Assembly: GCA_963693365.1 (NCBI GenBank)
Contig: CAVNZM010000006.1
Span: 7,233,264-7,297,263, forward strand
Reading direction: 5' to 3'
DNA: 64,000 bases
Source of the DNA: Amoebidium appalachense
Lineage: Eukaryota; Protista; Ichthyosporea
Part shown: piece after piece, positions 3,210 through 58,953 of the stretch
Layout: each line of letters begins with the position of its first letter
Position numbering within the stretch: the stretch's first letter is position 1
Position numbers and translations under genes: made by a program
Notes under the pieces: generated by a model
What the model saw: only the letters and a program-made list of their open reading frames with translations
Told to the model about the DNA's origin: nothing
The model's database searches: none

Positions 3210-10809
<7,600 letters not shown>

Positions 10810-11947
10810 CTGGGTGGGAAAAGGGGAGGGGGGAAGGGGGGGAGGCGGGGGGAGGGGAGGGGAAGGAGGCTAGGGGGGGGGGGGGTGAGGAGGCTGGGAG
10901 ATGAGGGGGGGAGGAGAGGGAGCCTGGGAGGGGTGGGGGGGAGGGGGCGAGGGGAGGGGAGGGATGAGGGAGGGAGGGGGACGAGAGTGAGTGGGCATCG
11001 ACCGGAGATGTCGAAGTTGGCAGGGAAAGGGAGGGAGGGTTTGTGTATGTATGTGTATGGGTGGGTGGGTGGTTGGGTGGATGGATATCCGCTTGTGTGT
11101 GTGTGGGTAGAATAAGGCGCAAGTCTGTATCATTTGAGTGTATCCTCGTGTGTATGCAAACCTGTGTCTCCCATACAGGTAGATGTCCAGGTTGTGTGCC
11201 GTCAGGTGCATGAGGAGAATGTTTTATGTATGTCATCTGCCAAAATCTCTGAGTAAAAGGCAAAAACGTCTGAAGTCAAGATTGAATGCCGTCACTCGTG
11301 CTGGACAGAATTCTGAGAGGTAGAGTTGCATGGGCTAGAAGAAACTTGGAAATCATAAATAGGAGTGATAGGCTTTTCCTACAAGCCTTTTAGTTTTTTT
11401 GTGTTGCTTGGCACTGTAGATTTGCTGTGTGTCTTCTGTGTTCGTCACTATGAGTGTATGCTGGTATCCAGCTGCAGGATGCATACACCAGGCATGTGAT
11501 CGTATGTAAATGAGCCTGGCTATACTAGACTGTTTTCGCCAATAGCGTATCCTTGTGAATTTATTCAACATATACGACCGTCTACGGGTGTGCTTGCTCA
11601 ATTCTTATGGCTGTCGAGGAGCCCACTTGAACACGCTTTGGCTCGGGATCCATGTTTCCTTAGATCCTGCACAACAGAAGGAACTTACTGATGGCGTGAC
11701 CTCTCTGTCCCACAGACGTCAGGAAAACTTAGAAATAACGGTATAGTGATGTTCCTTTGGATTATAATCTTGCCTGCCTCTCGTCTATACTTTTTGTTTT
11801 TTGTTTCTTGATTTTCTGAATTTGAAAAAGTTTGGCTGGCTGTGACAAAAAAATTTCGCCGCACTTTTGAAACTTTTTGAAGCTCAGGAGAGGAGGCGAG
11901 CCACCCCTTCCTTATTTGGTCATTTTCTGCGCAAAGATAAGATCTGG

Positions 11948-19669: not shown

Positions 19670-21514
19670 GGGGGGGGAGGAGGGGGGGGGGGGGGGGGGG
19701 GGGGGGGGCGAGGTGGGGAGGCCGCTTCTATGCGTAACTCAGGCGAAAGTGACGGTAACACTTCTACAAAAGGCAGTTTCGGTTATGTATCGTTCGTCTA
19801 ACCCAGCCTAGCACACACTCTACAGCCCGCGATTGATGGACCGTAACTTCCATCGATGCTTCCGGAAAAATGCGAACTATTTGTGCCAGAGCGTGACTCA
19901 CAGTGGCTCTTGGACTACAGCTACCCGTTGCTTATTTTGCTTCGTTCCTTGAGTTGCAACGTTTCGTTTTTGCACCGTCAGAGTCGAAAACCTTTGGAAA
20001 ATTCCGAGCCGCCTTCCAGTGAAAGCACAAAGAGCAGTTATGTTGGCGATGCGCCGCATTTTGATTGGACCATCAAATTGCGATGTTTTGATTCGCTTTA
20101 GATCATGACTAGACCTAATCCATAATTCCTCAAAGGGCTGTTCCGGCTAATGTGATTTATTGCCAATTATCAAAAAGCTAGTGGCTTCCAGTCACATGTT
20201 TGCCGTTTGGGAGCAGTGCTTGCTGGCAGGCTGCTCCTGGTGCTGCCGGGTGAAGTGTAGAAGTACTGTAATGAATTTTGAAGCAGTGCGTAATGTTGTA
20301 CAAGTATAGCTCAAAATAATTTCTTTTAAATTTTTATTATTTAATGTGCTTTGAGATCGGTTTGGTGGTTTTGTGATCATGAGGCTCTGTCGTTCGCCCG
20401 GTACGCGCGCGTGCACCGGCCGGGTGCCATGGGCGACGGAGTCTGTCGCGTGCCATGTACACTGAGGGTCGGGCTAGCCCAGGCACTGCATACAAAAAGT
20501 TAGTGAAAAGAAAAATAAACTTTCTTTTATGTATCTATAAATAAACATGCAGTCTATGAAACGAGCATACCAGATTACTTGCGACACAGGCTTTATTTGG
20601 GCCATAAATCCAGCACATGCATGCTCACGACCCAACATGATTGGGGTTTGGTATCACAAAGCTTGAATTTCACTCGAGCTTCCCAGAAACTTGCTGGCAG
20701 AAACTGAAAGCACATAAAACGGCACTAGAGGACTTGAATAAACATTGCCATTTATGCAGATATACTTAAAAAATCTTAAATATCCATTAATCATTTATAC
20801 TCTAATGAAACACTGCCTAAAGTGAACTTTCTTCGATTAGCCAAGCCCACCAAGCACGGGCAAATTCGACTTATACAGCACCCCAAAGTATAGGAGATTG
20901 TTTGGGGTGTAGGGGTCTGTGTGAGCTCTTTATTTGATTGGCTCACTCACCAAATAGTTCTCAATTCAAAAATATAATCCAATCAAAATGGATCTATGAC
21001 ATCACCTATTGCCGTCACATGTCTTGTGAGTGGACACAGGCGTATCCGTGACCCACTCTCGCCCCTTCCACTATAGCTGTGTGCACACACAAACGAGTCA
21101 TTGTTCAAGCCGGCATTTATTTTCTTGTTTACTACGGTTTTTTGTCTTGCCTGCTGCGTTTCTTGGTATTGTAGTGTCCAGGTAAACACGGAGTACACGG
21201 GAGATAATAGGGCTTCCGATAGTGTATATATAGTGGATTTAGTTTAGCGAAGGTTGTTTTGGATTAAGTCCATAAGATTTTTTCGAGTAGAGCACCTAGT
21301 GTCTATAGGGCGTTTACTTCATATTCTTGAGTTCAGAGCAGGGCTTCAATTGCTCGATGGGCCTGTCTCTTACCACACCCCATAGGCCAACACACTATTC
21401 GGCAGCCTGCATTTGTAGGCTGCCTTCGTACTCTTCATACCTGCTCTCTTTCCCACTCTTTTGTTACTCTTCCGGCTCGCACAGGTGTGATCATCCGAAC
21501 ATCCCTAGTCAAAC

Positions 21515-21918
21515 ATGGGCAACTCGCACAGCCATCACGGGGGTGTTGTCGCGGAGCCGCGCGCCCACAATTCCCATTCTTCACATGAGCGCAAGGGACA
21601 CACGGTTAGCCTCCACCTCCCCCACCTGAAGAAATCTTCTCCCCCTAGCTCTTCAGCCGCCTCCACACCCAAACATTCCCACACCAGCCTTCCAAATGGA
21701 AGCGCACAGAAACAACCAGATTCCCTTGGAAAGACAAAGAGTGTAGGGCACTTGATGCACAACATGAGCAACAAGACGGCCCCGGAGGATAAGACGCCAC
21801 AGGCGACGCGTGCTCCGAGCTTGCAGCCAAACGAAAAGGGGCACGTGCAGAGGTCTAGTTCGTCCGGGTCGCTGAAGTTGCCTACACATGGGAGCAGCTT
21901 TCACCTACCCCACGTCAA

Positions 21919-21958
<40 letters not shown>

Positions 21959-23824
21959 ATGCAAGAGCTTGTTCCGGTGTTCAAAGATGCATGTGTAATA
22001 GAAGAGGCTGTAGTTTAGTTTGCAAGGTGGAGTTAGGGAACGATGCAATTGAGTGTGGGATTTCAATGTGCATATTTGAACATAACAAGGGCGCTTGAAC
22101 GTGGCTGTGTGAATCACTTGTGTGTGTGTGTGTGTGTTTCGGTGTTTTTGAAGTCACATTTTTTTTTGAGAGAGGGGCCGGAGGGGGGGGGGGGAATAAT
22201 TGAACATTTTTTATGCAAGCACAGATGTGCGTTATTTATTTTCTCTTTCTTTGCAGTAACTATATTCCTGTTAGTTAGAGTTTGGAGCTGTTGCTCATAA
22301 CCACGGGGTCACGTGCACACACACACACACACACACACATGCCCTCACGCAAATCACATACACCCACTACCCCGCCATGATGCCTAAACATGCAAATGCG
22401 CGCCCAACACATGCACATACACACACACACGTGTACAAACACACACTCAAACACGTACACACACACACACACACACACACACGTGCACAGGTTCCCCTCG
22501 TTCCACGGGCACCACGAGCACAGCACCAGCTGTCAGGTGATGGAAGAGTTGGCCAACGAACCGGGGTTCAAGTACGCCCTAGACCAGTTTGAAATAATCA
22601 AGCAGATTGGTTCGGGTGCGTTTGGCCGCGTTTTGCTCTGCAAGCACACACTCACGGGGCAGAAGGTGGTGTTGAAAGCGATTGAAAAGAAACTCGTTGT
22701 GAGAATGAAACAGCAGCAGCATTTGAGGGAAGAGAGAAACGTTCTGAAGGAACTTTCGGAACACAACTGCCCGTTTGTCGTCAAGACGGTGGGTTGCTTC
22801 CAAGACGCGTCGACGGTCTATTTCGTGATGGAATACGTCCCCGGGGGGGAGCTTTTCGCGCATTTGCAGGCGTCGAACCACCACCACTTTAGCGAGAAAC
22901 GCGCGCGGTTTTACCTTTCGGAGGCGATACTCGCGCTTCAGCACATGCACGAAAAGGAACGCGTCGTTTATCGTGACATTAAGCCGGAAAACATGCTTTT
23001 GGACGAACATGGACACTTGAAGATTGTTGATTTTGGGTTTGCTAAGCATCTTGATGACGAGGAGAGGACGTATACGTTCTGCGGCACACCGGACTATCTT
23101 GCTCCCGAGGTGATCAAGGGCAAGGGGTGCTCGAGAGAGGCCGACTACTGGGCTCTAGGTGGGCATGGTTCTGTGCTTTTATTTTTGATTTATTTTTTAA
23201 TTTATTTTTTTAGGTGAAAGGGGAGGGGGGTTTGATGTGTGTGTGTTTGGGGGGGGGGGGGGGGGGGGGAGGAAATGTGTAATATTTCTTTACTCCTCTC
23301 GGGAACACCCCTGATGATGGGCTCTTTTCAAGTGTCGCCTGCCTGCACTTTTTTTTTTTTTTTTTTTTTTTTTCCGTTGTCTTTTGATGGCTCCACTTCC
23401 ATGATTCCAACGTTTGAATGTATACATCCCCTGCCCTCCCCACTTTCCTCAACAATATAAGAAGAACTTCGGTAATGGACAAACATGCACACGCGCGCGC
23501 GAGCCACACACATACACACACACACACACACACTTACACACACACACAAATACACCCACACGTACACACCACACACACACACACACCCCTACTCTGCAAC
23601 AACGACTGACATATTTCTTTTCCACCCTTCAGGGGTGCTCACCTACGAGCTCCTTGTTGGGCACGCACCATTTGAGACGAGGGAGGCGCACAGCGGCAAG
23701 GTGACGTACAAGCACATATTGGGTGGGAGGGTGCAGTTCCCTAAGTTTGTCTCGAAGGAGGCAAGGGAGTTCATTCAGGCCTTACTGCAGGTGGGTGATG
23801 GTCGATTTTATTGTTTTTTGCAGT

Positions 23825-23863
<39 letters not shown>

Positions 23864-24051
23864 TATTATTCTTATGTTGTTGTTTATGTACGGTTGGTAT
23901 TGTAGGTGTGTGTGTGTGTGTGGTGGTGGGGAGGGGGGGAGACAGGGGAGGGGGGGGGAGGGGGAGGGGGGATACTTGAACCTGCTTGTGTGCGCACGTG
24001 TGTGTGTGTGGTGTGCCCCTTATTTGCCATGCTCTCTCTCTCTCTCTTTCT

Positions 24052-24091
<40 letters not shown>

Positions 24092-24420
24092 ACATCCCCC
24101 TCCACGCTACTTGCAGTTTTTGTAGACTCTGTTTTCTTAGATTGCTGCTCCTTGAACAACCCTGCTCGTCTTTGGCCAAGACGGGTGGACTCGCCTATTG
24201 CTGTTGAAACAAAGTATGGGTTGGGAACCACGCGCGAGAGGTTAAAGAGTCGAAACACATGCTTTTGTGGAGGCATAGGAACCCCCCTGATGATGGGCTC
24301 TGTTCAAGTGTCTTCTGCCTGCATGCTTAATTGTTTGATTTTGGATTTCCCACGTTTGTGACGTTTTGCTGTTGCTCTTTGTTGTCTCCTCCATATTTCC
24401 AACCCTCTAACACATACATC

Positions 24421-24465
<45 letters not shown>

Positions 24466-25089
24466 ACCTCTCCCAACTCTCTTTCTCACATTCGCCCTCC
24501 TGTCCCCGCCTCACTCCCTCTTCCCCCTACCCACCCACACACGCACAAACACAAGTGTGTTCTTTTGAGACTAACCGGCATCAGCAATTACCTAGTCACA
24601 TATTGCACAAACACCTTATATACCCGTATCTGAACAAGTCAAAACTCACTCAAATTTCGCATTTTATGCACGCAGGTGGACCCCACGAAGCGCCTGGGGC
24701 ACACCGGGGGGGTCGAAGCGATCAAACACCACCCATGGTTTACGGCGACCGACTGGGAGGCCATTCTCCGTATGGAGGTGAAGCCCCCCAAACTCCACAA
24801 GTGCAAAAAAGGGACCGTAAATTTGCAAGCGCCCCAAGACCCCCGCCAGGTTAAAGCCGAACCCGTATTGGATGAAGAGACGAAGGCCCTCTTTTCGAGT
24901 TTCGATTTTGTGACCCGACCCGAAAGTCACATGGAGCAGATTCAAGAGGAAGAGCAACCCGGTCCGGCCCAAGCACAGCCCGAACGGCAGGCGCCCGCGG
25001 TGGCGGGTGGAGTGGTTCCTAATGGGATCAGGAATAAGAGGTTCTATATTGCGGGGGAGGAGGGAGAGGAGGAGGAGGATTCAAAGTAG
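21515..25089 (+). CDS. AGC-family Ser/Thr kinase, cAMP-dependent protein kinase catalytic subunit (PKA-C/PRKX)-like
   Basis: Exons 21515-21918, 22491-23158, 23633-23790 and 24676-25089, all phase-consistent. Motifs IGSGAFGRV, VLK, MEYVPGGELF, YRDIKPEN, DFGFAK, RTYTFCGTPDYLAPE, DYWALGVLTYE, DPTKRLG, IKHHPWF..DW. N-terminal MGNSHS fits the myristoylation consensus. Confidence 0.95.
23301..23347 (+). repeat. Intronic repeat family A, short fragment
   Basis: ggaacacccctgatgatgggctcttttcaagtgtcgcctgcctgca matches 24278-24323. Confidence 0.75.
24182..24420 (+). repeat. Interspersed intronic repeat family A, long copy
   Basis: Near-identical to the reverse complement of 5302-5540; followed by poly-C. 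Confidence 0.9.
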
Positions 25090-27880: not shown

Positions 27881-41198
<13,318 letters not shown>

Positions 41199-42444
41199 GT
41201 TTGCGTCTGTGTGGTTGCATAAACTATACCCCAAACCTGCAGACACAAGATGTACACGTTTTTGTTATACTTCTGACCAAAGGAAGGGTAGCCCACGAGC
41301 TAAGCTACCGGTAGACGCCCCGACGTCGTAGCCCCTTCAATCTCTCCCACCTACCCAAAACATCCCCCACAACCCTACGACCCGCCCCCCCCCCCCCCCC
41401 CCCCCCTCCCCCCTCACCACCCCAGCCTTCCCATACTATCCCCCCCCCCCCCCCCTCCAACCCCCCCCACCACCACCCCAGCCTTCCTCCCCCTCCCCCT
41501 CACCTCCTTCCAACCCCCCCTTCACCCCCCAGTCTCTCTCCCCCACCCACCCACGACCTCCCTCCCGCTGTAAGGGTTCGTCATAAAACCGTTGGTTTAG
41601 TGGTGAAATATAGATTGATGCAGACTTTCGGCTTCGTAGGCATAGATCAAACCAACGCATGCACTCCGCCACCCTCAATTTTCCAACCAGCAACCGCTTG
41701 CCGACCTAGTTTTTCACAGGTATGTTTTCAGATCTTAACCCCAGCGAACAAGAACCGAAAGCCCCCACCACGCAACAGTCACCCACAGAGAATTAAAGGG
41801 ATCTATCTAACAAGGAGCTTTCATCCAAGTAGTGGGCCTACCTCAGTTTTGGTCAATATTAATAATCCGCCACACTCAGGTTCAACATCATTATATGCGC
41901 GCCTAGACACCCTCCCTCCTGTGTGTTTGCTCCTAGAAATACAGCCGATCATACAGTACAAGGAACGACAAAGATTGTGGTCCGAAATAGAGGTTGCTAC
42001 TGATGAACAATTATTATAAGCTGTCGTGGGAGAAGGCCCAACTATGACGGTTTTCGAGCTATACTCAAGCCATACACAGGCATATACTTCTAAGGTACTT
42101 TTGTTACAAACTTCGGTGTTTGTATCCAACAACTGGCCAGGAAACAAGAGAGGAAACAAGCAATTGACTGTCTGTAAGCTTGAAAAGCCCACCCCGCACC
42201 TCCGCACTTTGCCGCGATACCATTAAGGGATACGGGATCGCGCGGCTCGAATACTTTCTGGCGCCGCTCAGATCGATATCTATCTGGATTGAGTGGGCTT
42301 GATCTGCCTATTGGGCACCTAAGATCGTGTGGCCGAGCTATACCATGTACACACGGCATGCCACACACGTGTCCGGACAAAACTGCGCTGCACATTTTTC
42401 ATGAAGGCGGGTTGTTTTCTAACTATATATGTTAGGCACTCACA

Positions 42445-44360
42445 ATGCCAACTTGCGCGGCTAACTACTGCAAAAATGACGAAGAAACAGTCTCTCCCAA
42501 AGATCCTACCAGGAAGATAAAGCTTTTTACTGTTCCATATGGATACAAACCAAATGTATTGGCTAGGAGGCATGCTTGGTTAAATGCTATAGGCAGGCAG
42601 GAGCAAACAAAGTATGAGCGGAAACAAATAGCAGAACACACAAAGCAAGCACCCCCCGACCCAGACACACACACAGACACAAGGCCAAAGGCCTCGGATG
42701 GGACAGACGTAAATACAGACACAACCACTACTGAGACACACACAGCTGACACACAATCCGAAAATGCCAATGACTCGGCTGTGCCAGCTGAGCAGTCGGC
42801 ACAAGAACCACAACCAAAGAGGAAACGGGGGCAACCGAAGGTGGAAGTCCCCTGGCCACTGGCTATCCTTAAGCAACTGGTTGTATGCGAGGCACATTTC
42901 ACCGATGATGATATTACTGCTAAGAATGGAAAACTGAAATTAACAAAGGATGCATGTCCCATCCGAATGGAACTAGACCCGATGTACAGAGAGAAGGTAC
43001 AGCTATTGAGGGAGGAAAGGGCCAATAGTCATATGCAAGCTGTAGGAATGGATGCCTCAGATATTGAGCAAACACGGAAACGAGCGAGGGAGCGGGGGGA
43101 GACGAGCAGTGAAGAAGCAGAGGACAGTGAACGAGCGAAAAGAAGGAGGGAACATGTGCGTGAAAGGACATTTGACTATCTAGAGTCGAAGGCAGGTGAG
43201 GAAGGGATGGATGTAGAGGATTATGTGAATGTCCTGGAACGTTCAAGAGCTTTCTATAAGGAGCAGGCGGAGAAAATGCAAATCGAACTTGAGATAGCTA
43301 CGAAGCAATTGGAGGAAAATGAGAAGAAACAAAGATTGGAGAAGAAGGAGCTCGAACAAGCGCTTGATCAAGCGAGGGAGGAATTACTACAAAACCAGAA
43401 AAGAATATGCATGGAGGACATAGTGGCGGAAGAGGAAGGGAAGGCTAGAGATGATGTGGTGAAAACATACACGGGGTTGGATAGTTTTGATGCTCTCATG
43501 GGAGTGCTGGGGATTGTTGCTTTTATTGGCCAATCAACTATAAACATGAATGATTTTAAAACCAAAACAGGAAGGAAATAATATGGCATGATGGATGTCT
43601 TTTTACACTTTTTCGCCTCCGCCACGGCACATCCTTCCAACTATTGAGTCGGCTGGTGGATGTGTCAGAACCGAATCTTTCGCGTATATTCCGCCATTTT
43701 CTTGGTGCCCTGGCGTTAGCACAGGTTTTTCTATACGAAAAAGCCCCCACCAGAGAGCAACTTTCGAAGTTTAAAGCCGGTTGCTACACTGGGCAATGGG
43801 ACGATGTACGGATGATCATTGATTGCACCGAGGTGTTTGTACAGGTGCCGACAAACCTCCTTCTGAAACGATGTTTCTACTCAGAGTACAAAAGCAATTA
43901 TACTCTCAAGTACTTCGGGGGCATCACAACGGATATGAAACTCAGACCGGTGTCCGATGCACATGTGGGGGGGTTCAAAGACCCGGATCTCACAGGTGTA
44001 TGCAAGCGTGAATTTGTAGATCAGATAGAAGAGGGGGATGAAATAGCAGCTGATAAAGGGTTTAGAGTGCACGGGCTAATCATGGAGAAGGGTGCTTCCT
44101 TGCTATTACCGTCGTTTGTTGAGCATGGGCAGCTAAACGCTGAAGACACCATATATAGCCAAAGACTGTCTAGTGTGCGCGTGCATGTGGAGAGGGCTTT
44201 TGGGCGCATGAAAAATTATCGGCTGTTTAGCAATCAGGTGCAGATGTCGATGGTAGGCACCCATTGGATGGTAGCTAAGGCTGTGGCTTTCTTGTGTAAC
44301 ATGCAAGAGCCACTATATAAGGATATGGTGGGGCCCGGGCACACCAAAAGCATGGTGTAG
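42445..44360 (+). CDS. THAP + coiled-coil + HTH + DDE_Tnp_4 transposase, split by a 1-nt frameshift near 43575
   Basis: THAP C2CH (CAANYC..LFTVP..RHAWLNAIGR..VCEAHF..DACP), YTGL motif, HTH (FTLFRLRHG..LSRLVDVSEPNLSRIF), catalytic IIDCTE, YSEYK..TLK, ADKGF, RVHVERAFGRMK. ORF 42445-43581 overlaps the -1 frame, which is open from 43560 to 44360. Confidence 0.92.
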
Positions 44361-44435
44361 AATTTTCGTTTTCGATTGCCAGTGCCTCTCCCTAAAGCCC
44401 CCTTCTCTGCTTTTTTTTTTTTTTTTTTTGTCTTT

Positions 44436-44487
<52 letters not shown>

Positions 44488-44614
44488 AAAATATGAATGA
44501 ATGCTTGCATGTATGTATTCGGCCAGTAGGGCTCCACTTTTCCTGTATAGGAAAATAATAATAATAATTGAAATTATTATGTATTTGTGTGCCAAGTACA
44601 ACCTTGAGTCGTTC

Positions 44615-44649
<35 letters not shown>

Positions 44650-44789
44650 TTCACAAACACACACAACCACGCACACACGGAAGCACGCACGCACGCACGC
44701 ACGCACCCACGCACCCACGCACCCACGCATGCACGTGCACACACGCACGCATGCACGCCCCCCCCCCCCCCCACACACACACACACACA

Positions 44790-44830
<41 letters not shown>

Positions 44831-44972
44831 AGGTAGGCACGTATGCAAACACCAAGGGGGGAGGAGGGACCGGGGGGAGGGGGGGGGGGGGGGGGGGGGG
44901 GTAGGAAACATATGCAGGCACCAGGGTCTGGTACATTGCTCTCAGATTTGACACACGGTCTTCATTCATTCA

Positions 44973-45006
44973 TTATAGGTTCACTAGATCGGTCAGAAGA
45001 TTACTG

Positions 45007-45064
<58 letters not shown>

Positions 45065-45773
45065 ACATTATGTTGTACTTTGTGCTTCTGGTAAAAACAT
45101 CGGCGGGGGTTACAATCACTCCGTACAGTTTGGGAATGCGCACCGCATTAGCGGTCCCAGGGATGACCGCCGCATCCGCAATGCGCAGTTTGTATACAAC
45201 CCGCGGGATGTTATACAGAAGAAGGTCGGCATCCTCAGTGACAACAGTGTGTGCCAAACCGGTACGTGCCATATAGGCAAGCTGGGGGTCTGCTTCGTAT
45301 GGAGCTACTGTGTAATCGACATTCTCATCTTTCAGTCTAAGGATGATTGCATGTAAAACTCTGTTATCTAACTCTGCAGCGCTTCTCCATTTGTTTTTAG
45401 TTACCTCCTCCTGTTTCTCTCTTTTTGTGGCTATTTCTTGGCGGGCTTTGACCACCTTTTCTGCACGGTCGTTATCAACTAGTTTTCCCTCTTTCAATCT
45501 GCGCCCATCAAACACATAGTGTGGCTGGACCCCTGCTAGCCTATACGTATTAACTTTGGACATAAAGTGATTTGCAATAGCTGCATATGTGTCGTCTGTG
45601 ACTTTTTTGTCATCTATTTGCTGTTTGGCTACTGTGTCAGCGAAAACTGAAAAGGACTTGTGGACCTGCACCATCCCGTCAAAAGCAACTACCCCACGTT
45701 GCAACTCTGCAGTAACATCTGTGGCTTTTTCGGCACTAATGCCGAGTGCTGGGAGCAAGCCCTGCACACCCAT
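44973..45773 (-). CDS. EXO1-like XPG/Rad2 (FEN1 superfamily) 5'-3' nuclease, N and I domains; H3TH region not seen
   Basis: MGVQGLLPAL, VAFDG, HYVFDG..K..R, VAPYEADPQLAYM, VVTEDADLLLY. Inside the transposon TIRs; the 3' end runs into (TG)n/poly-G. Confidence 0.88.
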
Positions 45774-46669
45774 GGTAAAAGTGCATGTATTCAAAGTAGT
45801 TTCTTTACATGAAAAAAATTATTTCGGGTTGTGCGCCCTCTGCGTTAACGTGCGAACACAAAACTCGTTGTACGGCGTGGGTGCGTAGCAACGCGTTACG
45901 TAATCAGGGGAAAAAAAGGCGGCGCCAGAAAGAAATCGGGGACCACTCAAAATCGCCGATCCCGTATCCCTTAATCCTAAACGATACGACACGTTCGAAA
46001 CTATCTACTTTCGATTTTGCGCAAGCAGCATCAATGAGGACCTGCTACTTCATTTCTGTAGAATCCGCGTTGTTGTCTTTGCCTCATCTCGAACATTATC
46101 GAGGTGGCGCGCACAAGTCGATCAATCAACTGTAAACAGCAGCCTAACCCAATTAGATTACAGATCTGCCAAATCGTGGCTGTAGATCCATCAATCAGCA
46201 ACGACCACGAAACGAACAGGTGCATCCACCCACGCAAGCCGCAGTGATTTTGATTTCTGAGAAGATGTTAAGACCCTCAAAGAGTGCTTTTTCTGTTGTT
46301 ATAATTACACTAGCGGAAATCTCCTGATTTTCAATACACATTCTATATAAAAAATATATTCCTGCAGGCATCTCCGCAGCCTTTGCTGACTGTCAAAATT
46401 GACACAGGCAAGGTAATAACACTAACCTTTTATGGTTAGCTACCTGCCAAACAGAGCGAGAAAAATCGGCTAATTTTGATTGAAAATATCTACCATCAGA
46501 TCTAAGGCCAGTGGTCTGCGAAATTTGTCGACTGATCAGGTACGTACATGCATAATCATGTGTGTTTGTTTGCGTGCTTGTGTGGCCTGTGTGTGTATGT
46601 GTGCGCGCGTGTGTGTGTGTGCGCGCGTGTGTGTGTGTGTGCGTGTGTGCGTGTGTGCGTGTGTGTGCA

Positions 46670-46760
<91 letters not shown>

Positions 46761-48738
46761 TGGTGGGTGGGAGGGTGGGTGTGGATGTGGGTGTGCGTGT
46801 GCGTGTATGTGAGTCACCTGGCACACGTGTACATGTGCGTCGACACGGTTCAAAGTATACAGGTACGTACCCGTTTGTGTGTACATGTGCCTGGCCATGG
46901 GTTAACGTTGCCACGTCGTATGGCGGTGCTTTTGTGCATGTGGCGACGTGTATATATATGTACATAGCGTGTGTGCCTCCTTGTGCACGTGCGTGTGTTC
47001 GTTTGTTGGTGCATGGGTATATACGATCGGTATCCACACTCAAAAACTCACTCAAATGTATAAACACTTGCCCATATGGACACCTATTTCCTTTTTATTT
47101 TTTTTGTTGGACTTTGCCCATGAGGATCCCGTGCACCGTCTTTCCCCCTCCTCTTCGGGCCTTCAAACCCACGTGCACACTCCATGCATCCCTCCCGGTG
47201 GAGATCTCCAGAACCTCGAGCTAGAGACTTCCCCCTCACCCGGCCCCTCTTGTGGCCTTTTGTCACCCTGCCAAAACACCGTGAATGAAGATCGTATGTA
47301 TACGTACATCGCCATGTTCACCGTGAGACCGTGCAGACAGTGACTACCAGTCCTGTGTGTCACACTGTGAAACTTCATAACAACAACACCGCTACTGCGT
47401 GCCTTGCATTGATCCAACACTTTTCACATGCATATGTACATGTCGAAGACGGCGTGGCTGGGGTAGTAGCCCTGGGCAAAGTGTGTACTTATAGTAAGGT
47501 TGTGGAACTCATAGATAGCACCTTAACTAGTGTACTGTCGGTGCTGTGTGGTAGACGGTAGTTTCCCTAGAGGGCCTGAAAAGGCCCTCCGGGAACAAAA
47601 CGTGATAAAATAAAATAAAATAAAAAAATACATGCCGAAGACACCTGCAGTACGTATACTATTGTAGTAGTGGTCCAGCATGCAAGGGGCGAACTGCCCC
47701 AGTTATAGGAAACCCTGCAGGGACTTACGCTGAAGTTTCCCACATGATAAAGTGAATTACAATGTAGGCCTACGTAGGACACTGTAAACACCGGGATCCA
47801 AGCTTGAAGCTCGCTCTTCTATCATGCGGCATGCGGCGCACTTGCCACTGTCACTCGAGTCGGCCCGGGTACCATATCAGGAGCGGGCAATTTTTGAATT
47901 CTCCCTCCCCGGCCCCGCCGGGGAAAATTTGAGGTTTTTGGACCTCAAAGAAGTCAAATCCTGCAAAATCCACTACCGGGAGGCCAAAAAGGGTGATTTT
48001 ACAAAAAAGGAGGGACATACATGAAAAAGAGAAAATGGGCGAGTTCAGTGGGCTGCCGATAAGTATATTTCGTGCTGGGCCGGTATACATGCTGCCGTGG
48101 TTGTTGCTGTAGACGGCAGTATGGCATCGCATGTGTCACGTGACCTGCACGTGAATGCGACCATGTGCAGGCACTGAGTCTAGGGGGATTTGTATGTGTG
48201 TTTTGGAGCACCGACAAGGCAGAGCCAGGGTGAGGGATGTGTAAACATGGAGTTTAGGGAGATCGTGCTGCTATTGTAACATGTGCACAAAACAGCCACG
48301 TGCACCGGCACACTCCGGTGTACAGAACAATAATATGCACATGCGTCACTGTAATATCATGTATGCGCATGCCGCACAAGGTTTAGGAGACCACCACAGT
48401 ATATACTATTTTCTTTTGGTTGATATCCATGTAGGAATGGTGTGTTGCAGTTGTCATGATCAGCCTGAGGCAGGCACGTGCACTCACTGAATCACTAGAA
48501 CTCATGAATAAAAAATACATTCGCTAAAAACGGCAAGGTAAATTTGGGGCCAAGCTATTATTTCCCCCTTTTAAACGTTTTTTTAGCTCCAAGAACTTCG
48601 ACGCCAAAATTTCTATATTTGGCCATCGTATATGATAATGAACACGTGTACTTAAATTAAAGTAGTTATATAAATATGAGCGGCCCGTTACAAATACAGT
48701 GACGAAAAACAGTGACCCACGAGCAGTTTTTCTTTCTA

Positions 48739-50674: not shown

Positions 50675-51999
50675 TTAGACACTAGTTTGGCTACTCTGAC
50701 TACTCTGAGATCCTGATTGGCTGCCTGCAGACTTGCGGCCACGATTACTTTGCTTTCGATCGTGCCATTGCAGCTGCGTCTCTCCAGCAGGTGGCAACGC
50801 CAGGCCCAGCACAGCAGATGCACGAGAAGGGGGTGGGAACTGCCCACCAGCCGAGGGCTGGCCCACATGGCCCAAGTAAGGATGGGGACCGTGCTGCGGC
50901 AGTAGCCCAGGCATGGGGAAGGCAGGGCCGGGCTGAGGCGGCATGATGCCCCACGGTGGGGGCCAGCCATGTGGGTGGTGCGGGCCTGGATGGGGTGCAG
51001 GGGGCATGTGCGGCACATGGCCCTGCTGCATGTCAAGCGCGGGTGCTGGTGGCATGGCATCCTGATTGGCTGCAACCCAACGTGGGCAGCTCTTGGCCCG
51101 ATTGGAGCCGGGGCAGCCCTTGCCCTGGCGGCCACACGTCTTGCAGGTCTTGGGGGCTCTCTGGGGTGGCTGCATAGGAGGGGGCACCGGCAAATCCATC
51201 TGCAGGGGCCCCTCAGGGCCAATGTTGCGATGCTTTTTGCCCACTAGCATGGGCAAGGGCCGCTCACGCTGCGCCCCTGCATCGACACCGTCTGGAACAG
51301 GGAGGGGTGGCAAGGGGGCAGGCCGTATGGTTGCTGGCACAGCGTCTGCCCTCTCCTCGCGCATACGCTTGCGGTGATCTGCCAGGCCCTCGTGTGTGGA
51401 GCGCTGTGCATGTGCCGTCTGCCAGGTCTTCCACTTGTCGAAATGCTTCTTGATGTAGGCCGCATCCTTCATGTAGATTCCCCCAGCCACAGAGGCAGCC
51501 TTGTTGAAGTCTTGGGCCAAAGCCTCGAACAGCTGGCCGTTGGGCTTTGCATGTGCCTTGTAGGTGCCCAGGAGCAGCGTGCTGAATAGCTTGCGCTCCT
51601 GAGGGGTAAGCACCGGAAGGAAGGGGATGGCCACATGTTGCTTCTGCGCCAGGAACTTGTAGTCGCCCCTCAGTGCAGGGTCCGGCTGTGGTGCACCACG
51701 CGCCACCTGGTTGCCCCCCCCCATGGCAGCACCGTCACCCTCCTCGACCTCACAGTCCTCTGGCCCGCCCATCACGCCATTGGCACCCCCTGTGAGGCAG
51801 GATGCCAATATTAATTTACTACGCACACTGCAATTTGGGTTTGGTAGACTTTGATACCTGCCGTTATTGTAGGACCCCTCCCCTCCACCCCCCCCATCTT
51901 CTCCCCCAACACAAGTAAAAAATGCATGTGGCTCTTTCCCCCCACAACCCTACATTATTTCTCTCTAGGCATATGAATAACCCCCACTCTCCTCCCCCC

Positions 52000-52075
<76 letters not shown>

Positions 52076-53081
52076 TCTCTGAGGCTCAGGCTCTCTCTCT
52101 TCCCTCAGAAGTTTTGTCGAAGGTGTGCATGGTTGTGGGTGGAATGGTGAGTGTGTGCTAACGAGTGTATGTGTGTGTGCGCGTCAGTCACGCATGTTGT
52201 TGTTGCCGTTTTTTTTATTTTTATTTTTTATTTTTTATTTTGGGGGGGGGGGGGAGGGGGGGCACCTTCACATGTCCGTAATCCTCTTCATTCCACACAA
52301 ATATTGCCTCGCTGAGTGCGCGTGCGTACTCAGCCCTGCGGGGGTGTGACTTGTACGTGCCGTCCGCCGTGTTTGCAATGGAGTGGAAGGCGTCATTCAG
52401 CACAGTCTGCCACACCACCTCCCCAGGCGGTGCCTGGCCCAACATGCCCTCTCTGGGAGCTGCCTCGGGTCCCCCTGGGGCTGCCTCAAGGCCCCCCGGG
52501 GCTGCCTGGGGGTCCTGGGGGGGTGCCTGTGGGCCGGCAAGGGGTTGCTGCTGCTCGGCAGGGGGAGGGGCTGGGTCAGGGACCACCGGCACCTCGGCAC
52601 CTGGCCAGGGGCTGAATGGGCCGTAGCCACTGCAGGTGCACCATCAGCTCAAAGGGCGGCGGGCCCAGCTCTCCCAGGGTCTTGCCCTTGTCGGGGCCAA
52701 AGGGCACCTGCATGGCCGGCGACAGCACCTGATCCACCCGCACCACTGCATGCTTCTTGCCCACCTTCATGCCCCCCCAGCGCTCCGGCTGCACAGCCAG
52801 CACCACCCCGGTGGCTGCTGCAGCATGTGGGCCCCGCCGGGGCACAATCTCAACCCCTTCACCGAGTGCCTTTGCATGAAGCCGCGCTGCATGTCATAGA
52901 GGGAAGCAAAAAACTCAGCCAAAAAGCCACAGCACCAACGTTTTTCTCTTCGCTCCACAAAAATCAAATGCATATTCCTTAGCAACCCCCCCCCCCCCCC
53001 CCCCCCCCCCCTTCTCCCCTCCCCCCCCCCTCTCCCAGTGCCCAGCTTGTGTGGCACTTGCACGTGTTAACAGTGCTATAG

Positions 53082-53112
<31 letters not shown>

Positions 53113-53203
53113 ACCACCACCACCACCACCAATCACCCCCTCCTTTGATAGCCACCCGACACCCAGCATAACACAACTGGAACACTGGCCCATGTGGTCA
53201 GCC

Positions 53204-53240
<37 letters not shown>

Positions 53241-54747
53241 CCCCCCCCTCCCCCCCTCCCCCTCTCCTCTGGGGGGCCCACAATCTTTCTATATCTGGCA
53301 TAAGCACATAAGCACTGGGGCAAAAAGCAGGTGGGATACACACCTGACAGGTTTGGCCTATCGACCACGGCCGAGTAGACCTGCAGGGACGCATATGCAT
53401 CAAGGGCAGCGTAGGTGGCCTGCACCTCTGATAGCGGCTCGTGCCAGTTGGAGCATCGAACAAGTGCCGGCTTGGGCAGCTTCTTGCCTATGACCTGGGC
53501 AGTGATGTCGGCCAAGCCCCGGGCCGCAGAGGTGATAGCTGCACGGGCATAGCAGAACCGGCCCAGCTCCAGATAGCTGGCCACAGGGGTGCCGTAGTCC
53601 TTGTTGAGGTGGGCCGAGTCCGTGCCGATCTGCTTGCCCACCTTGATGATGCTGGGGTCCCTAAGCAGCGCAATCAGCTCGTCCACCAGCCGCGCGGGCG
53701 GGCTGTGGTTGGGGCCCATGCGTGCCAAGTGGAAGATGTACACGGCCCGTGCGGTGGCAATCTGCAGCGTGCAAACCTTGGACCGCGCCTGGCCCACCCG
53801 ATAGACCCACTCGCAGTCCAGCCCCACCACGCGGTGCTGCTGCCCCTCCAGGTCGGCACGAATGGCCGCTGTAGCCACCACCGCCCCCTGGCAGTCGGTG
53901 TACACCGGCTTAGGGTAGTTGGCCGGCAGCTCCAGCCCAGGCAGACCGTCCGTCACGCTTACCAGCGCAGCCTCGTTCAGACGGACGGGGCATTTTGGCC
54001 GGGCTAGGGTTGGAAACATGCGCTCAACAAACGCCCGGTCTTGGCAGCACCGATCTGTGTAGAAGAAGGCCGGGCCCTTGCTGTTGAGCGCCGCCGTGGT
54101 GGCAGAGATGCGCTGGATCACGGGCTCAATCTCCTGGTGGCTGCAGTCCCGTGTAAATACCTGCGCCCGGATCTCTGGGGTGCCGCACTGTGTGAGAGGG
54201 CATCTCCGAGCAGCCATGCATGTTCTAGCTTCCCTTACCACATGGCCCTTCACGAGACTTCAGTGCCCACACAATCCTTTCCCCCCTCCCTCCCCCCAAA
54301 CCCATGTGCCCACATACTTTCCCCTCCCTCTCCCCCAAAACCCTTCCCCCTCCTTCCCCCCAAACCCATGTGCCCACATACTTTCCCCAGGCCTCCCTTT
54401 CCCCCAAAATCTTCCCCCCCCCCTCCCCCCCTAAACCCATGTACCTACAATCCTTCCCCCTTCCTCCCCCTAAACCCTTGTGATCACAATCCTTTCCCCC
54501 TCTCTGCCTTCCCCCCAAACCCATGTGCCCACGATCCTTCCCCACTCCCCCTCCCCCCAAACCATGGGACAGCCCTCCATATGGCACCTACTGTCCCCCC
54601 CCCCCCCCCCCCCCCCCCACCCCACCCCGGGCCTCTTGCCCTCTCTACCTTCAACCCCGACGGTGGTGTCTCTCCCCCCCCCCCCCCCCCCCCCCCTGCA
54701 TCCCTTGCAATCACTGGCCCCTACTCCCATTCTGCTTGGCAGAAGCT

Positions 54748-54803
<56 letters not shown>

Positions 54804-55033
54804 ATTCCCCGCCAAAAGAAAGCTCCACCCCAGCCCACCCCAATCTCTACCCAGCAAAAACACATACACACATATCTGGAGCTTCCTAGTTTTTGCTCGA
54901 CAGGGCAAGAATTGTCCCCAAAACCCACATACTACAAACCTCTACTCACAGTGTGCCACCTCATTAAATGTGGAGCCTAAGAGATTTAAAGGCCCTAGAG
55001 GGGGGAGGGGGGGGGGGGGGAGGGGGGGCGTGT

Positions 55034-55064
<31 letters not shown>

Positions 55065-55494
55065 GGCGTGTGTGGGGGGGGGGGGGGAGGGGGGAAGGGG
55101 GCCTGGGGGAGAGTGGGGGGAGGGGGGAGAAGAGGAGGGACCACACACCGCCAAGCTCGTTTACACAAGTCCATAGGCCTCGGTACAGAGGCTCCCCATT
55201 GATGCCGGTGAGCTTCCCAATTTGGAAGGTGTGGTCGGCCTTGAGCACGTTGTTTACGGGCTTGAGCTGCGTGTCCAGGCTCTGGTACTTTGCCGTGCGG
55301 TCGCTGAACTCAGTATACACGGCACTCAGGTATTTGCCTGAACCCCAAGTACTGTTAGAACTCCACCACCCTCCCATCAGGACCATCCCCCCCATTCCCT
55401 CTAGTCCCTCGTGTTCATCTCACCTCTCTGTATTTTCGTAAGTCTGTATGGCTTTTCCCATCTCAAAAACGCTACACACCCATCTCCGGCCGTT

Positions 55495-55530
<36 letters not shown>

Positions 55531-55708
55531 CCCCGCCTCCCCGGCGCGCGCAAACCCTCCAAGTCATTGCACCAACTTTCACCTTCTTTCCCCTTTGTGC
55601 CCCATCTGCAGTTTGTCCCCTGCACGTCCGTTTGCCCTTCCCCCCACACCCTCCTGCCACTACTATAATAACCATTAAGTACCGCCACCAAGATCCAGTC
55701 TACCACCA

Positions 55709-55758
<50 letters not shown>

Positions 55759-55907
55759 CTCTCCACCTCCTTTCCCCCAACACACACAGACACACATGCG
55801 CACACCCACCATCTAATTTCAGGCATAACAGTTCTCCACGATTTCCCAAGCACACTCACTGGTACATGGACCGTTATGCTTTCACCCCTCTGATGATCCC
55901 TCTGCCC

Positions 55908-55938
<31 letters not shown>

Positions 55939-56018
55939 ACCACCACCACCACCACCACCACCACCATGACTGATTGCCACCACCACCACCTAATCCATCA
56001 CCATGTCCCCCCTCCCCC

Positions 56019-56050
<32 letters not shown>

Positions 56051-57454
56051 ACACACACACACGGACCCACAAGTACACGCACACTCACAGGCGCACATCC
56101 ACCACCACACATCCACCACCACCATAATAGAAACTTATTGACCACACTTCCAAAACCCATTTCCAAGTCCCCCCCCCCCCCCCCTAAAAAAAAAATAAAA
56201 AATAATAAAACAAAACCCTACCAAGCCAACCCAAAAAATGCCCAAGCACGTGCATACAAAACAATGGGGACCATTTACACACCCAAAATGCAGTGCACAC
56301 TTGCCTGAAGGCACATGTCCAGCGTAACCATTTTTGTCACCAAACGCCGAGAACTTAGCCGCCTGCTCCTCTGGGGGAAGTTCTGTCAGGCGCTGGTCGT
56401 GGGGGCGGAAATCGTTACGCTTTTTGAGTTCATACTTGGTCCAATGCAGCGCCCTCGAGTAATACAGGAGCCGCTGCTCGTCGTATCGCTGCTTGTGGAG
56501 CTCCGAGAGGAGGGTGGCAAAGGCGTTTGGGCCCACACCTTTGTCTGCCAGTGCACGCAACAATGTTACCACCTTTAGGTCGAGCCCACTGCGGTGGCTA
56601 AGGTAGGCCGGAAACTGATCACGCATGAAGAGTGGAAGGCGTTTAATTGTCTGGGGGTTTGTGCCGGCAAAGTTTTTTTTGCATGTGTCACAAAAGTACC
56701 GGGCCGTGATAATGTAGTAGCAGCTGTCAAAGTCGATAACACGCCGTCCTACGGGGTTGCTCATGAACCCATTGCGAGAAGTACGGTGTGGGTTGGGGTG
56801 GTTGTGGGGGTCCACGTAGTGATCATCGAAGGGGCACGGCACCATGAAACCGGGAGACAACCTTTCCGGAAGCCAGGCAAAACATCTGGGTTTGTAGAAA
56901 GGCGCTGGATCGCCCCCAAATTTAAAGCCTATAATGGGAGGTGGAAGATGCCACCCCACAGGCGTCTTCTCATCTTTGAGACTCTCTTTCACTGTGTGCA
57001 GGTGCGACTTGATTGTTTCGCCCGCCGCGTCAGAAAACTCCTCTCCACCGTCATCCCCGTCCGTATTATCTTCTCCCTCTTCCTCCCCTTCATCCTCGTC
57101 TACCCGGTACGCATCTGCTGCTGCATTTAGCAAAGGTTCCTCGTCGGGTTGCACCTGTATGTCTGGTGGGTGTGGAGCAGGGGCCCGATCCATTTCTCTT
57201 GGTAACGAATGGACGCTACCTGCCTCAACTACACGGGCCCTTATGTCGGCGGCCTTAGATAGAGGGGGCTGTTCGGGTTGTACGTTTACGTTTAGTTCCT
57301 GCAAAACAGCTTTGTTTGCCGTCCCAAAACCTGCAAAGTTCGCTAAAGGCTGAACAAATGCAGCATCTTTTTTTTTGCGCCCAGCTCCCTCCCTAGCTCC
57401 GCCTGTTTTATGCCCAGGGCGCTGTGTTGTGCCCTTAGGGCAGCCTGGCTTCAT
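50675..57454 (-). pseudogene. DUF6729-type transposase-like gene with inserted DEDDy (WRN/EXD2-like) 3'-5' exonuclease; frameshifted and probably internally deleted
   Basis: Exons 57454-56305 (AT-hook-like GAGRKKK; FAWLP..CP..RRVIDFD..RYFCDTC..LP..FPAYLSHRSG..GVGP..ELH), 55337-55149 (LKADHTF..VNELG), 54174-53344 (EIR..FYTDRCCQD, then VGLDCEW, IGTD, YAALDA), about 52887-52266 (frameshift near 52610; VLNDAFH..ALSEAIF) and 51789-50675 (FLAQKQ..LPV.T..ERKLF, GIYMK, CKTC..CPG..C). Phase mismatch between the last two exons. Confidence 0.75.
54285..54570 (+). repeat. Intronic minisatellite, about 6 degenerate units containing CCCCAAACCCATGTGCCCAC
   Basis: Core motif at about 54294, 54358, 54430, 54468, 54513 and 54555. 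Confidence 0.75.
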
Positions 57455-58326
57455 TTTAAACACTTGGGGCCTGGCCCCCTGCCCCCCTAGTGCGACTACG
57501 TTACCGCAAACATTCCCGTATTCCAGTGTGCTCGGCAATGCTGCTCATGGCCTTCGCGGACTGGTTGTGACCAGTAAAGAGCGCGCCAATTGGCCCGGGA
57601 CAGCAGTGTATGATCTGTTATCCATATTCGGCAAAAGGGGTCTTGCCCAACCAATGGCTTGAATCCTTGTAACTTTGCTTTATCCATATAAGGTTAGCTG
57701 AACACCCCCCCTCCAATCATACCCCCCCCTTCTCTCTAGTAGTAGCTCCTGGCATGCCGCACCCCCCCCCTCGAGTCGGAACTTTCGCCGAAATTCGATT
57801 GGCGCCCTGGAATGCCACAAATGATTAAATCATAAAATCTAGGATTGCTTACACATCATGTTACCGGAACTGATGGCAGCCAAAATGAAGATTCTGGGCC
57901 GGGCTTGCCGTCATTACCGTGACAGCGCACTGAGCAGCAGTGCCACTTGTCACCATCATGTCAGACGCTCTACGGTTTCTGATCCCGGATGCTTTTAGTA
58001 ACTCAGCGTTAACGTTTTAGAGGGTATTCTTCATTTGCGGGGCATGCAGGTTATAATTTATGAAATTGGTGTAGCCTATTGTGGCATGCATGCGCGCATC
58101 TATTTATGCACGCACTAATATTAGCTTGCATGCACGCACCCATTTGCATGCACATGTTACAACGTATATTGCAGACGCTCAAAAGAAAAGAAGAGAAAAG
58201 AAAAAAACCAAGGGCTGCCAATTGCGCCCACGATGAAATAGCAGAAAGCACGCGAGCTTTTCAGTTGAAAAACAAAGGCTATAGCTACCTGCAGGCCAGT
58301 CGCGCTTACGCTACTGTGCTTGTTTC

Positions 58327-58953
58327 ATGGCTACTGTGACCGTGGCAACACACCGTGCAGCAACCCTCACGGCCTCCCCTTCGTCCGAAGACTCCGATGC
58401 ATGGGACCCCATCCGTTTCGTTTTGCGCAACAGCGAGCTTCTGGGCCACATCCTGTCGTTTGTCGGCCAGCCCGCACGCACGGCCTGCACCCTCGTGTGC
58501 CGCCAGTGGCGTGACGTGGCGCGCTCTGTGCCCCTCCACATCACCGTCGCACAGGACACAGCGTGGGAACAGTTGGAGAGGGGGGTGGATGCGTGGAGAG
58601 GTGCCGTGGTGGGTGTTTCTCTCCCCTACCAAATATTCGGTCAGTGGCAGCCGGGGCTTGAGGACAGCACCGTGATGCGTGAACGTGTGGTGTTTTTATT
58701 TGAAAAGCTCCTAAAGTTGCGCACTGTCACTGTATACACAAACCTTTTGTATGGTAACGAGTTCTGTTACAGAGAGCAATGGCGGGCAGGGCCATCCCAT
58801 AAATCCCATGCATATGAAGATGGTGTGGAGGGTGTGTGTGCGATAGTGCGGTCTGTCGGATTGAGGGCACAGTCAACGGACTGGTATATTGCACGGGCCC
58901 GAGAGATGTGGGATGCCGTCAGTGAAAATGTCCATGGCTTTGGTTTGCTGTAG
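58327..58953 (+). CDS. Intronless F-box domain protein (208 aa)
   Basis: VLRNSELLGHILSFVGQPARTACTLVCRQWRDVAR fits the F-box consensus (L..ELL..I.SF......LVCR.W..); normal coding composition, ATG to TAG. Confidence 0.75.
   Translation: MATVTVATHRAATLTASPSSEDSDAWDPIRFVLRNSELLGHILSFVGQPARTACTLVCRQWRDVARSVPLHITVAQDTAWEQLERGVDAWRGAVVGVSLPYQIFGQWQPGLEDSTVMRERVVFLFEKLLKLRTVTVYTNLLYGNEFCYREQWRAGPSHKSHAYEDGVEGVCAIVRSVGLRAQSTDWYIARAREMWDAVSENVHGFGLL

Follow-up and report, generated by a model that had tools for sequence, protein, structure and literature searches.

What does an EXO1-like nuclease do in a transposon whose nearest relatives carry a YqaJ gene in the same place? The question is raised by a 64,000-nt stretch of DNA from Amoebidium appalachense (GenBank assembly GCA_963693365.1, contig CAVNZM010000006.1, positions 7,233,264 to 7,297,263 of the forward strand; hereafter the window), which holds an ISL2EU-like element of 3744 bp at 42227-45970. 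The element encodes a transposase with a DDE_Tnp_4 core and, convergent to it, a nuclease of the XPG family. We find that (i) the window copy is a broken member of a multi-copy cut-and-paste DNA transposon and that (ii) its EXO1-like gene sits in the slot that YqaJ occupies in the relatives. The pairing suggests that transposons of this kind likely need an accessory enzyme for trimming DNA at its 5′ ends.

Anatomy of the element and its copies in Amoebidium

A first-pass annotation, made from the sequence of the window, had placed perfect terminal inverted repeats (TIRs) at 42227..45970 around a transposase and a convergent nuclease open reading frame (ORF). Our analysis bears out this arrangement, with the following features:

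42223-42226, + strand: left copy of the TTAA target, either a 4-bp target-site duplication (TSD) or, counting the A at 42226 as part of the element, a 2-bp TA duplication
42227-42240, + strand: left TIR, 14 bp, perfect
42254-42267, + strand: subterminal motif of 14 bp on the left side, 27 bp in from the end, a candidate THAP-binding site
42445-43581, + strand: N-terminal part of the transposase, with a THAP domain split by a low-complexity insert and followed by a coiled-coil-like region; premature stop from a frameshift near 43571
43560-44360, + strand: C-terminal part of the transposase, with HTH_Tnp_4 and DDE_Tnp_4; in the same frame as the N-terminal part in other copies
44361-45071, no strand: low-complexity middle of poly-G/C and CA tracts, containing the breakpoint 45071/45072 at which the C-terminal half of the nuclease is gone
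45072-45773, − strand: N and I regions of the EXO1-like XPG-family nuclease, with D32, D89, E160, D162, D181, D183 and R103, Gly96 at the K85 position, and without H3TH
45919-45932, − strand: subterminal motif of 14 bp on the right side, 38 bp in from the end and 11 bp deeper than the left one
45957-45970, − strand: right TIR, 14 bp, perfect
45971-45974, + strand: right copy of the TTAA target

The TIRs read GGGATACGGGATCG and start with GGG, or with AGGG if taken as 15 bp. The subterminal motif forms a second perfect inverted pair, and the 11-bp shift between its two positions amounts to about one helical turn. TTAA stands on either side of the element, within ATTAA on the left and TTAAT on the right. 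Several right flanks of other insertions align through TTAAT; because three depart earlier, at 45970-45972, TTAA is to be taken as a preference that need not be strict. By analogy with a YqaJ-type relative, L031, whose canonical ends are AAT/AGGGG...CCCCT/ATT (slashes mark boundaries), the window ends may read TTA/AGGG...CCCT/TAA, a TA duplication in T/TA/A, and are equally readable as a 4-bp TTAA duplication. The 3-bp flanks differ (TTA versus TAA), so there is no TWA duplication of the Harbinger type.

All three domains of the THAP-HTH-DDE_Tnp_4 transposase that had been proposed for this locus were found by Pfam, although the gene that encodes them is split by the frameshift in the window copy. 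THAP (E 1.9e-8) lies in the frame at 42445-43578 (+), and HTH_Tnp_4 (E 7.1e-8) and DDE_Tnp_4 (E 1.4e-30) lie in another frame at 43563-44357 (+). An extra A behind 43571, present at full depth in contigs of three sequencing runs (X2, X7 and X11), unites both frames. The catalytic residues of protein P0002, D87 (DCTE), D164 (DKGF) and E210 (VERAF), are invariant in a 7-sequence alignment, and no C/DxxH motif was seen by eye between D164 and E210. None of the three ORF parts of the element matched a Myb domain in Pfam.

Depth over flank was 22-25x for the nuclease and ~10x for the transposase core in X2, and 24-27x and 11-12x in X7, values that serve as a rough guide since contig depth is not copy number. 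Among the matches listed for X2, five right flanks differ from the window's own and two different left flanks occur, direct evidence of several insertions. A single contig connects the beginning of the nuclease with the subterminal motif on the right. A second full copy was not found elsewhere in the 64 kb of the window, and an Rfam search returned no match.

In X2, an internal-deletion derivative lacking 43110-44190, joined across a short overlap, is abundant and matches the in-frame transcript protein P0194. It keeps THAP and the last ~55 residues and loses the DDE core. The KP protein is a repressor of the P element, and by analogy this derivative could act as a KP-like repressor. Abundant internal deletions fit abortive gap repair, yet they are not specific to it.

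Transcript-derived EukProt proteins labelled Amoebidium parasiticum are 96-98% identical to both genes. Those retrieved are broken variants: P0016 and P0004 each represent half of a nuclease split by a frameshift, and the DDE core is missing from P0194 and P0201. X11, whose RNA nature is a guess, has one contig over 42393-44380 and another that runs from 45803 and extends 650 nt past 45072. These contigs start 52 and 30 nt 5′ of the ATGs and without TIRs, which is transcript-like and gives a hint of expression only.

The nuclease and the slot it occupies

The nuclease ORF (45773->45066, − strand) matches XPG_I (E 3e-13) and XPG_N (E 2.8e-5) in Pfam and contains all of the AFD, VFD, YEAD and TEDAD motifs, as expected from the earlier description of a convergent ORF with the acidic residues of FEN1/EXO1. 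By sequence, the closest protein of solved structure is human EXO1 (E 2.2e-17), ahead of the best FEN1 (E 3.8e-10). For the predicted model (pLDDT 75.7), the first 14 rows listed by the structure search are human EXO1, with TMq up to 0.75. Sequence and model together point to an XPG N + I fold that resembles EXO1 more than FEN1 or XPG. Seven acidic metal-site residues are retained, six in the window and D225 from P0004, as is the equivalent of R92 (R103). The frame of the gene is open and intronless, in a genome with seemingly intron-rich host genes, and the full protein has ~360 aa, judged from P0003 and P0004. A complex prediction for the transposase core and the nuclease gave a score of 0.01, too low to read.

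The window copy has the N and I regions whose acidic residues the first-pass annotation noted; H3TH is lost from this copy and present in others. The window nuclease ends ahead of H3TH, and no H3TH exon was found anywhere in the window. Because contigs of other copies, one from X2 and one from X11, leave the window sequence at 45072 and run into H3TH-side codons matching P0004, a protein that contains the H3TH motif GCDY...GIG, we conclude that the window copy lost the H3TH half of its nuclease, by deletion or by an assembly fault. An intron hiding H3TH is ruled out, since the X2 DNA contig is continuous from 45072 into these codons and the window holds no such exon.

The nuclease is highly divergent. 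A library search returned 3063 proteins at E <=0.001 and just two at 1e-30, both from Amoebidium. Over 218 columns (154/157 rows), identity to 152 other EXO1-like rows reaches a maximum of 35% (median 29%), compared with a median of 40% among those rows, and its terminal branch measures 1.46 versus a median of 0.35. Among 71 EXO1-like proteins (69 of 147 new representative hits and 2 others), Pfam detected no fused transposase, THAP or SWIM, and ESM Atlas yielded generic XPG clusters only.

We scanned metagenome stretches with a transposase alignment, used the best 80 of 159, and ran Pfam on 85 of the 135 other ORFs (>=130 aa) of these 80 loci. The closest transposase relatives are 31-35% identical and bear YqaJ. 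YqaJ occurs in 34 of the 80 loci, in some together with SAP or SWIM, and XPG in none of them, so that the pairing of ISL2EU-like transposases with YqaJ, claimed at the outset, holds in the nearest relatives. In 33 of the 34, the YqaJ ORF is downstream of the transposase and convergent to it. A YqaJ-ORF2 profile built from 18 ORFs matches 31 of the 38 loci that have at least 1.5 kb downstream, and nothing in window positions 40001-48000; an EXO1 profile has no match in any of the 80 loci (best E 0.2; window control 1.8e-59). It is this downstream, convergent position of YqaJ in the relatives, and the absence of XPG from all 80, that identify the place of the EXO1-like gene as the YqaJ slot. The sole YqaJ ORF upstream of its transposase (L037, 2493-2969) points away from it. 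Three YqaJ-type elements (L010, L030 and L031) have TIRs that are long or imperfect, up to 465 bp in L030.

Recurrence of the pairing and origin of the nuclease

A scan of genome contigs with the nuclease alignment gave 38 pattern matches, leading to two loci (L084 and L085). L084 is a 5.5-kb contig of 62% GC that was binned with a bacterial metagenome-assembled genome and is likely eukaryotic because of its THAP-like/DDE content. Its single 1513-aa ORF matches XPG_N (E 6.5e-7), XPG_I (E 5.3e-10) and DDE_Tnp_4 (E 8.5e-27). Cys/His-rich segments between these domains look SWIM- and THAP-like by eye, with no Pfam match, and ESM Atlas held no usable match for the fusion. The nuclease and transposase parts of L084 each share 29% identity with the corresponding window protein. 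Since this unrelated contig fuses both domains, the pairing of XPG with DDE_Tnp_4 recurs. At 249-264, L084 also carries a 14/16 match to the left end of the window element, with a shuffle frequency of 0.0035; it is the sole match at <=2 mismatches in ~403 kb of loci. This match points away from the ORF, as the right end of an element would if that element lay upstream of it, and has no partner repeat in the contig. In L085, the XPG ORF is cut by the contig end, and no matching transposase part was found in the L085 genome.

Trees disagree on whether these sequences form a single clade. For the transposase (49 of 70 cores, near-duplicates removed, no outgroup), a fast LG tree unites the window with L084 (SH-aLRT 74); the mixture-model tree does not, yet 62% of its bootstrap trees do. 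The window transposase sits on a very long branch with YqaJ-linked rows nearest to it, in a tree without a Harbinger, Spy or IS5 outgroup, and a plasmid search for a prokaryotic outgroup gave no match. The window and L084 transposases share 7 rare residues, the top count for L084 and, for the window, one tied with three other rows, which does not decide the matter. A 38-row nuclease tree, in which the window part was joined to the P0004 tail, places the window, L084, L085, P0012 and P0180 in one group (92/85), with the bootstrap unsettled. A control of 24 rows used the window sequence itself and dropped L085, the two viral rows, FEN1 and 10 host rows; here 1% of bootstrap trees recover this transposon-linked group, and amphioxus EXO1-like proteins are the nearest rows. 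Of the two-gene transposon clade put forward by the first-pass annotation, the two-gene pairing is strengthened by L084, and the single clade is not established.

A wider reading would make the element part of an ancient and undescribed sister lineage of ISL2EU that spans unicellular eukaryotes (an ichthyosporean and the host of L084). In this lineage, a nuclease of the EXO1 fold, encoded separately or fused to the transposase, would be a second catalytic subunit that transposition cannot do without. We hold this reading to be possible and put it somewhat below an even chance. If it is true, a dedicated 5′ nuclease, whatever its fold, is indispensable for the movement of this branch of PHIS transposons.

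A recent Pack-type capture of host EXO1 is unlikely, because identity is at most 35% and all seven acidic residues are retained. A near-identical host gene should yield contigs that diverge at the 5′ boundary of the nuclease gene; none were found at a likeness limit of 80%, so no host gene of at least 80% likeness was seen. The alternative named by the first-pass annotation, a near-identical fragment of host EXO1 confined to one copy, is contradicted by this low identity and by the family-wide presence of the nuclease in contigs. A viral origin was considered and rejected: the AT-rich viral loci L081-L083 have distant XPG genes (22-40% identity over short stretches) that lie on a separate branch and have no adjacent transposase, and single-protein scans of viral contigs gave no match.

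These viral XPG genes are syntenic and EXO1-like, and the gene upstream in L081 is an M16 peptidase. In amphioxus, P0164 is EXO1-like with a C-terminal HIRAN domain, and Branchiostoma has short EXO1-like paralogues, including P0005 and P0007, that are possibly mobile.

Classification, proposed mechanism and alternatives

The element works like an ISL2EU (PHIS) transposon yet is not a strict member, since its target and its ORF2 differ. With ISL2EU, as described in the accessible parts of PMC4482050, PMC4122938 and PMC9179366, it shares a THAP + HTH_Tnp_4 + DDE_Tnp_4 transposase, short G-rich TIRs (those of ISL2EU usually start with GG), an AT-only palindromic 4-bp target and two convergent ORFs, with a 5′-3′ exonuclease as ORF2 in ISL2EU and a predicted one here. 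It differs in the fold of ORF2 (EXO1/XPG versus YqaJ), in the target (TTAA versus A/AT/T) and in the host, an ichthyosporean, whereas the 25 families of PMC4482050 come from animals. The earlier label 'ISL2EU-type' therefore suits the transposase domains, the TIRs and the two convergent ORFs, and does not suit the target, which is not the AATT of ISL2EU, or an ORF2 that is not YqaJ. If the termini are AGGG, as in L031, the T/TA/A geometry of the window would mirror the A/AT/T of ISL2EU. Among the matches listed from the PMC4482050 supplement there are 18 ISL2EU rows, all AT, 12 of them with YqaJ; XPG has 0 occurrences in three files.

PIF/Harbinger and NuwaI/II (PHIS) likewise have a DDE_Tnp_4 core, two ORFs and short TIRs, but they combine a Myb/SANT partner with TWA, CWG or CTNAG targets, in place of the THAP domain, nuclease partner and TTAA of the window. 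The Kolobok lineages D, E, P and H share the TTAA duplication with RR...YY termini and, in the available sections of PMC9587614, have exchanged accessory nucleases between lineages (DEDDh, lambda-like, His-Me, RecQ), a precedent for swaps; their transposase is of the C/DxxH type, unlike the DDE_Tnp_4 of the window, which is without C/DxxH.

Host EXO1, of the FEN1/XPG superfamily, resembles the window nuclease in its fold, the seven acidic residues, the N-terminal Gly, the R92 equivalent and, in intact copies, H3TH. The window nuclease differs from it by <=35% identity, a length of ~360 aa versus at least 550 aa in many host EXO1s, the lack of introns and the Gly at K85. The nuclease of AcademX is of the XPG type. 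According to the accessible text of PMC10045372, AcademX resembles the window element in being a DNA transposon that encodes an accessory nuclease and makes TSDs of 3-4 bp. Its transposase is unrelated to DDE_Tnp_4. For the link between XPG domains and Academ drawn earlier, that paper bears out the nuclease, its XPG type being general background.

In the literature searched, we found no description of an ISL2EU/Harbinger-type transposase paired with XPG, EXO1 or FEN1; prior cataloguing is possible, because Repbase, Dfam and subscription reviews lay outside the search. The consulted portion of the PMC11244446 main text has 0 occurrences of Harbinger or ISL2EU, and the excerpts of the ISL2EU literature examined offer no explanation for the role of the exonuclease ORF2.

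Elsewhere in the window, a multi-exon, GC-rich region at 50678-57544 (−) looks like another large nuclease-carrying mobile element, with DUF6729 (E 3e-18) at 56138-57544 and, at 53201-54259 (−), a DNA_pol_A_exo1 3′-5′ exonuclease (E 5e-15). Host genes lie at 21509-25086 and 3213-11275, a PKA-like kinase on the + strand (Pfam) and an SH3-like protein on the − strand (by eye); their apparent introns are full of long poly-G/C and CA tracts. An F-box ORF lies at 58285-58950.

We give an even chance to a reading of the locus as a broken copy of a multi-copy ISL2EU-like (PHIS) transposon whose EXO1-type second gene likely does the job of YqaJ, predicted to be the 5′-to-3′ trimming of ends. THAP would bind the subterminal motifs; asymmetric internal sites are also found in the P element. 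The DDE core would excise the element and insert it at TTAA, and the nuclease would resect 5′ strands at the donor break, or trim 5′ overhangs or the element ends. Resection would favour repair from the sister chromatid, by which the donor copy would be restored and the copy number would rise. Lambda-type exonucleases and EXO1 have unrelated folds, and 5′-to-3′ resection of duplex ends is favoured here because it is the sole activity common to both.

Several observations weigh against this end-trimming role. At the position of EXO1 K85, a residue important for EXO1 catalysis, the window nuclease and the transcript protein P0016 have Gly96, with Lys97 adjoining. The other 37 of 38 rows have Lys there, and the sequencing runs list no variant at this position. 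Because the K85 equivalent is Gly, full activity of the nuclease is not assured and may be low or altered. A domain search found neither SWIM nor SAP in P0004, though several YqaJ partners carry them. No contig spans transposase to nuclease over the low-complexity middle, and full two-gene copies are inferred from the window copy and the depths. Many copies keep the nuclease yet are without the catalytic transposase core, and since the core is missing, this retention does not amount to selection for transposition. In addition, a grouping with amphioxus EXO1-like proteins is not rejected by the approximately unbiased (AU) test (p 0.128). Of the non-homologous swap of 5′-3′ exonucleases suggested by the first-pass annotation, the shared convergent slot and the family-wide nuclease stand; full enzyme activity is not established, and the need for the nuclease in transposition is a prediction.

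TnsA is the second-strand cutter of Tn7, and the nuclease could play a similar part in the transpososome: the DDE core would nick and join 3′ ends only, and the nuclease would remove 5′ donor flaps and so set the duplication length. The fusion in L084, which places XPG and DDE_Tnp_4 active sites in one chain, agrees with this, as do the 5′-flap complexes among EXO1 structures and the difference between the TTAA of the window and the AATT of YqaJ elements. We nevertheless regard second-strand cutting as rather unlikely. The lambda-type YqaJ enzymes are exonucleases and not flap endonucleases, so that flap cutting is not an activity common to the two partners, and the loss of the gateway lysine would impair flap cleavage that depends on threading. 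PIF/Harbinger, moreover, transposes with a Myb partner and without a nuclease (PMC9179366, available parts). A point in favour of the cutter is that the TSD length of Academ differs between helicase and nuclease lineages (PMC10045372, available parts).

The nuclease could also be an old, lineage-specific capture of host EXO1, either a passenger or a weakly catalytic binder of DNA ends, dispensable for transposition, with similar pairings having arisen separately. The Gly at the K85 position, the very long terminal branch, the AU result, the dissolution of the transposon-linked group next to amphioxus EXO1-like rows in the 24-row control, and an abundant variant that is frameshifted in the nuclease (P0016/P0004) would all fit a passenger. 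Against it, all seven metal ligands are preserved together with R92 despite identity of <=35%, in an open, intronless frame amid host genes that appear intron-rich, and the gene occupies the exact slot and orientation of ORF2. A passenger would also not readily account for L084, where the same partner recurs. We consider a passenger improbable.

For annotation, classifiers based on termini would misfile a TTAA element of this kind as Kolobok or piggyBac, and gene annotators would count the transposon nuclease as extra copies of EXO1. The surprise of the exchange is lessened by the known swaps of accessory nucleases in Kolobok and Academ. The element extends ISL2EU-like two-gene transposons to a likely unicellular relative of animals, with the new target TTAA. 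Non-homologous replacement by an enzyme of well-known chemistry, EXO1, points to 5′-end processing as the common activity, which can be tested by single active-site mutations.

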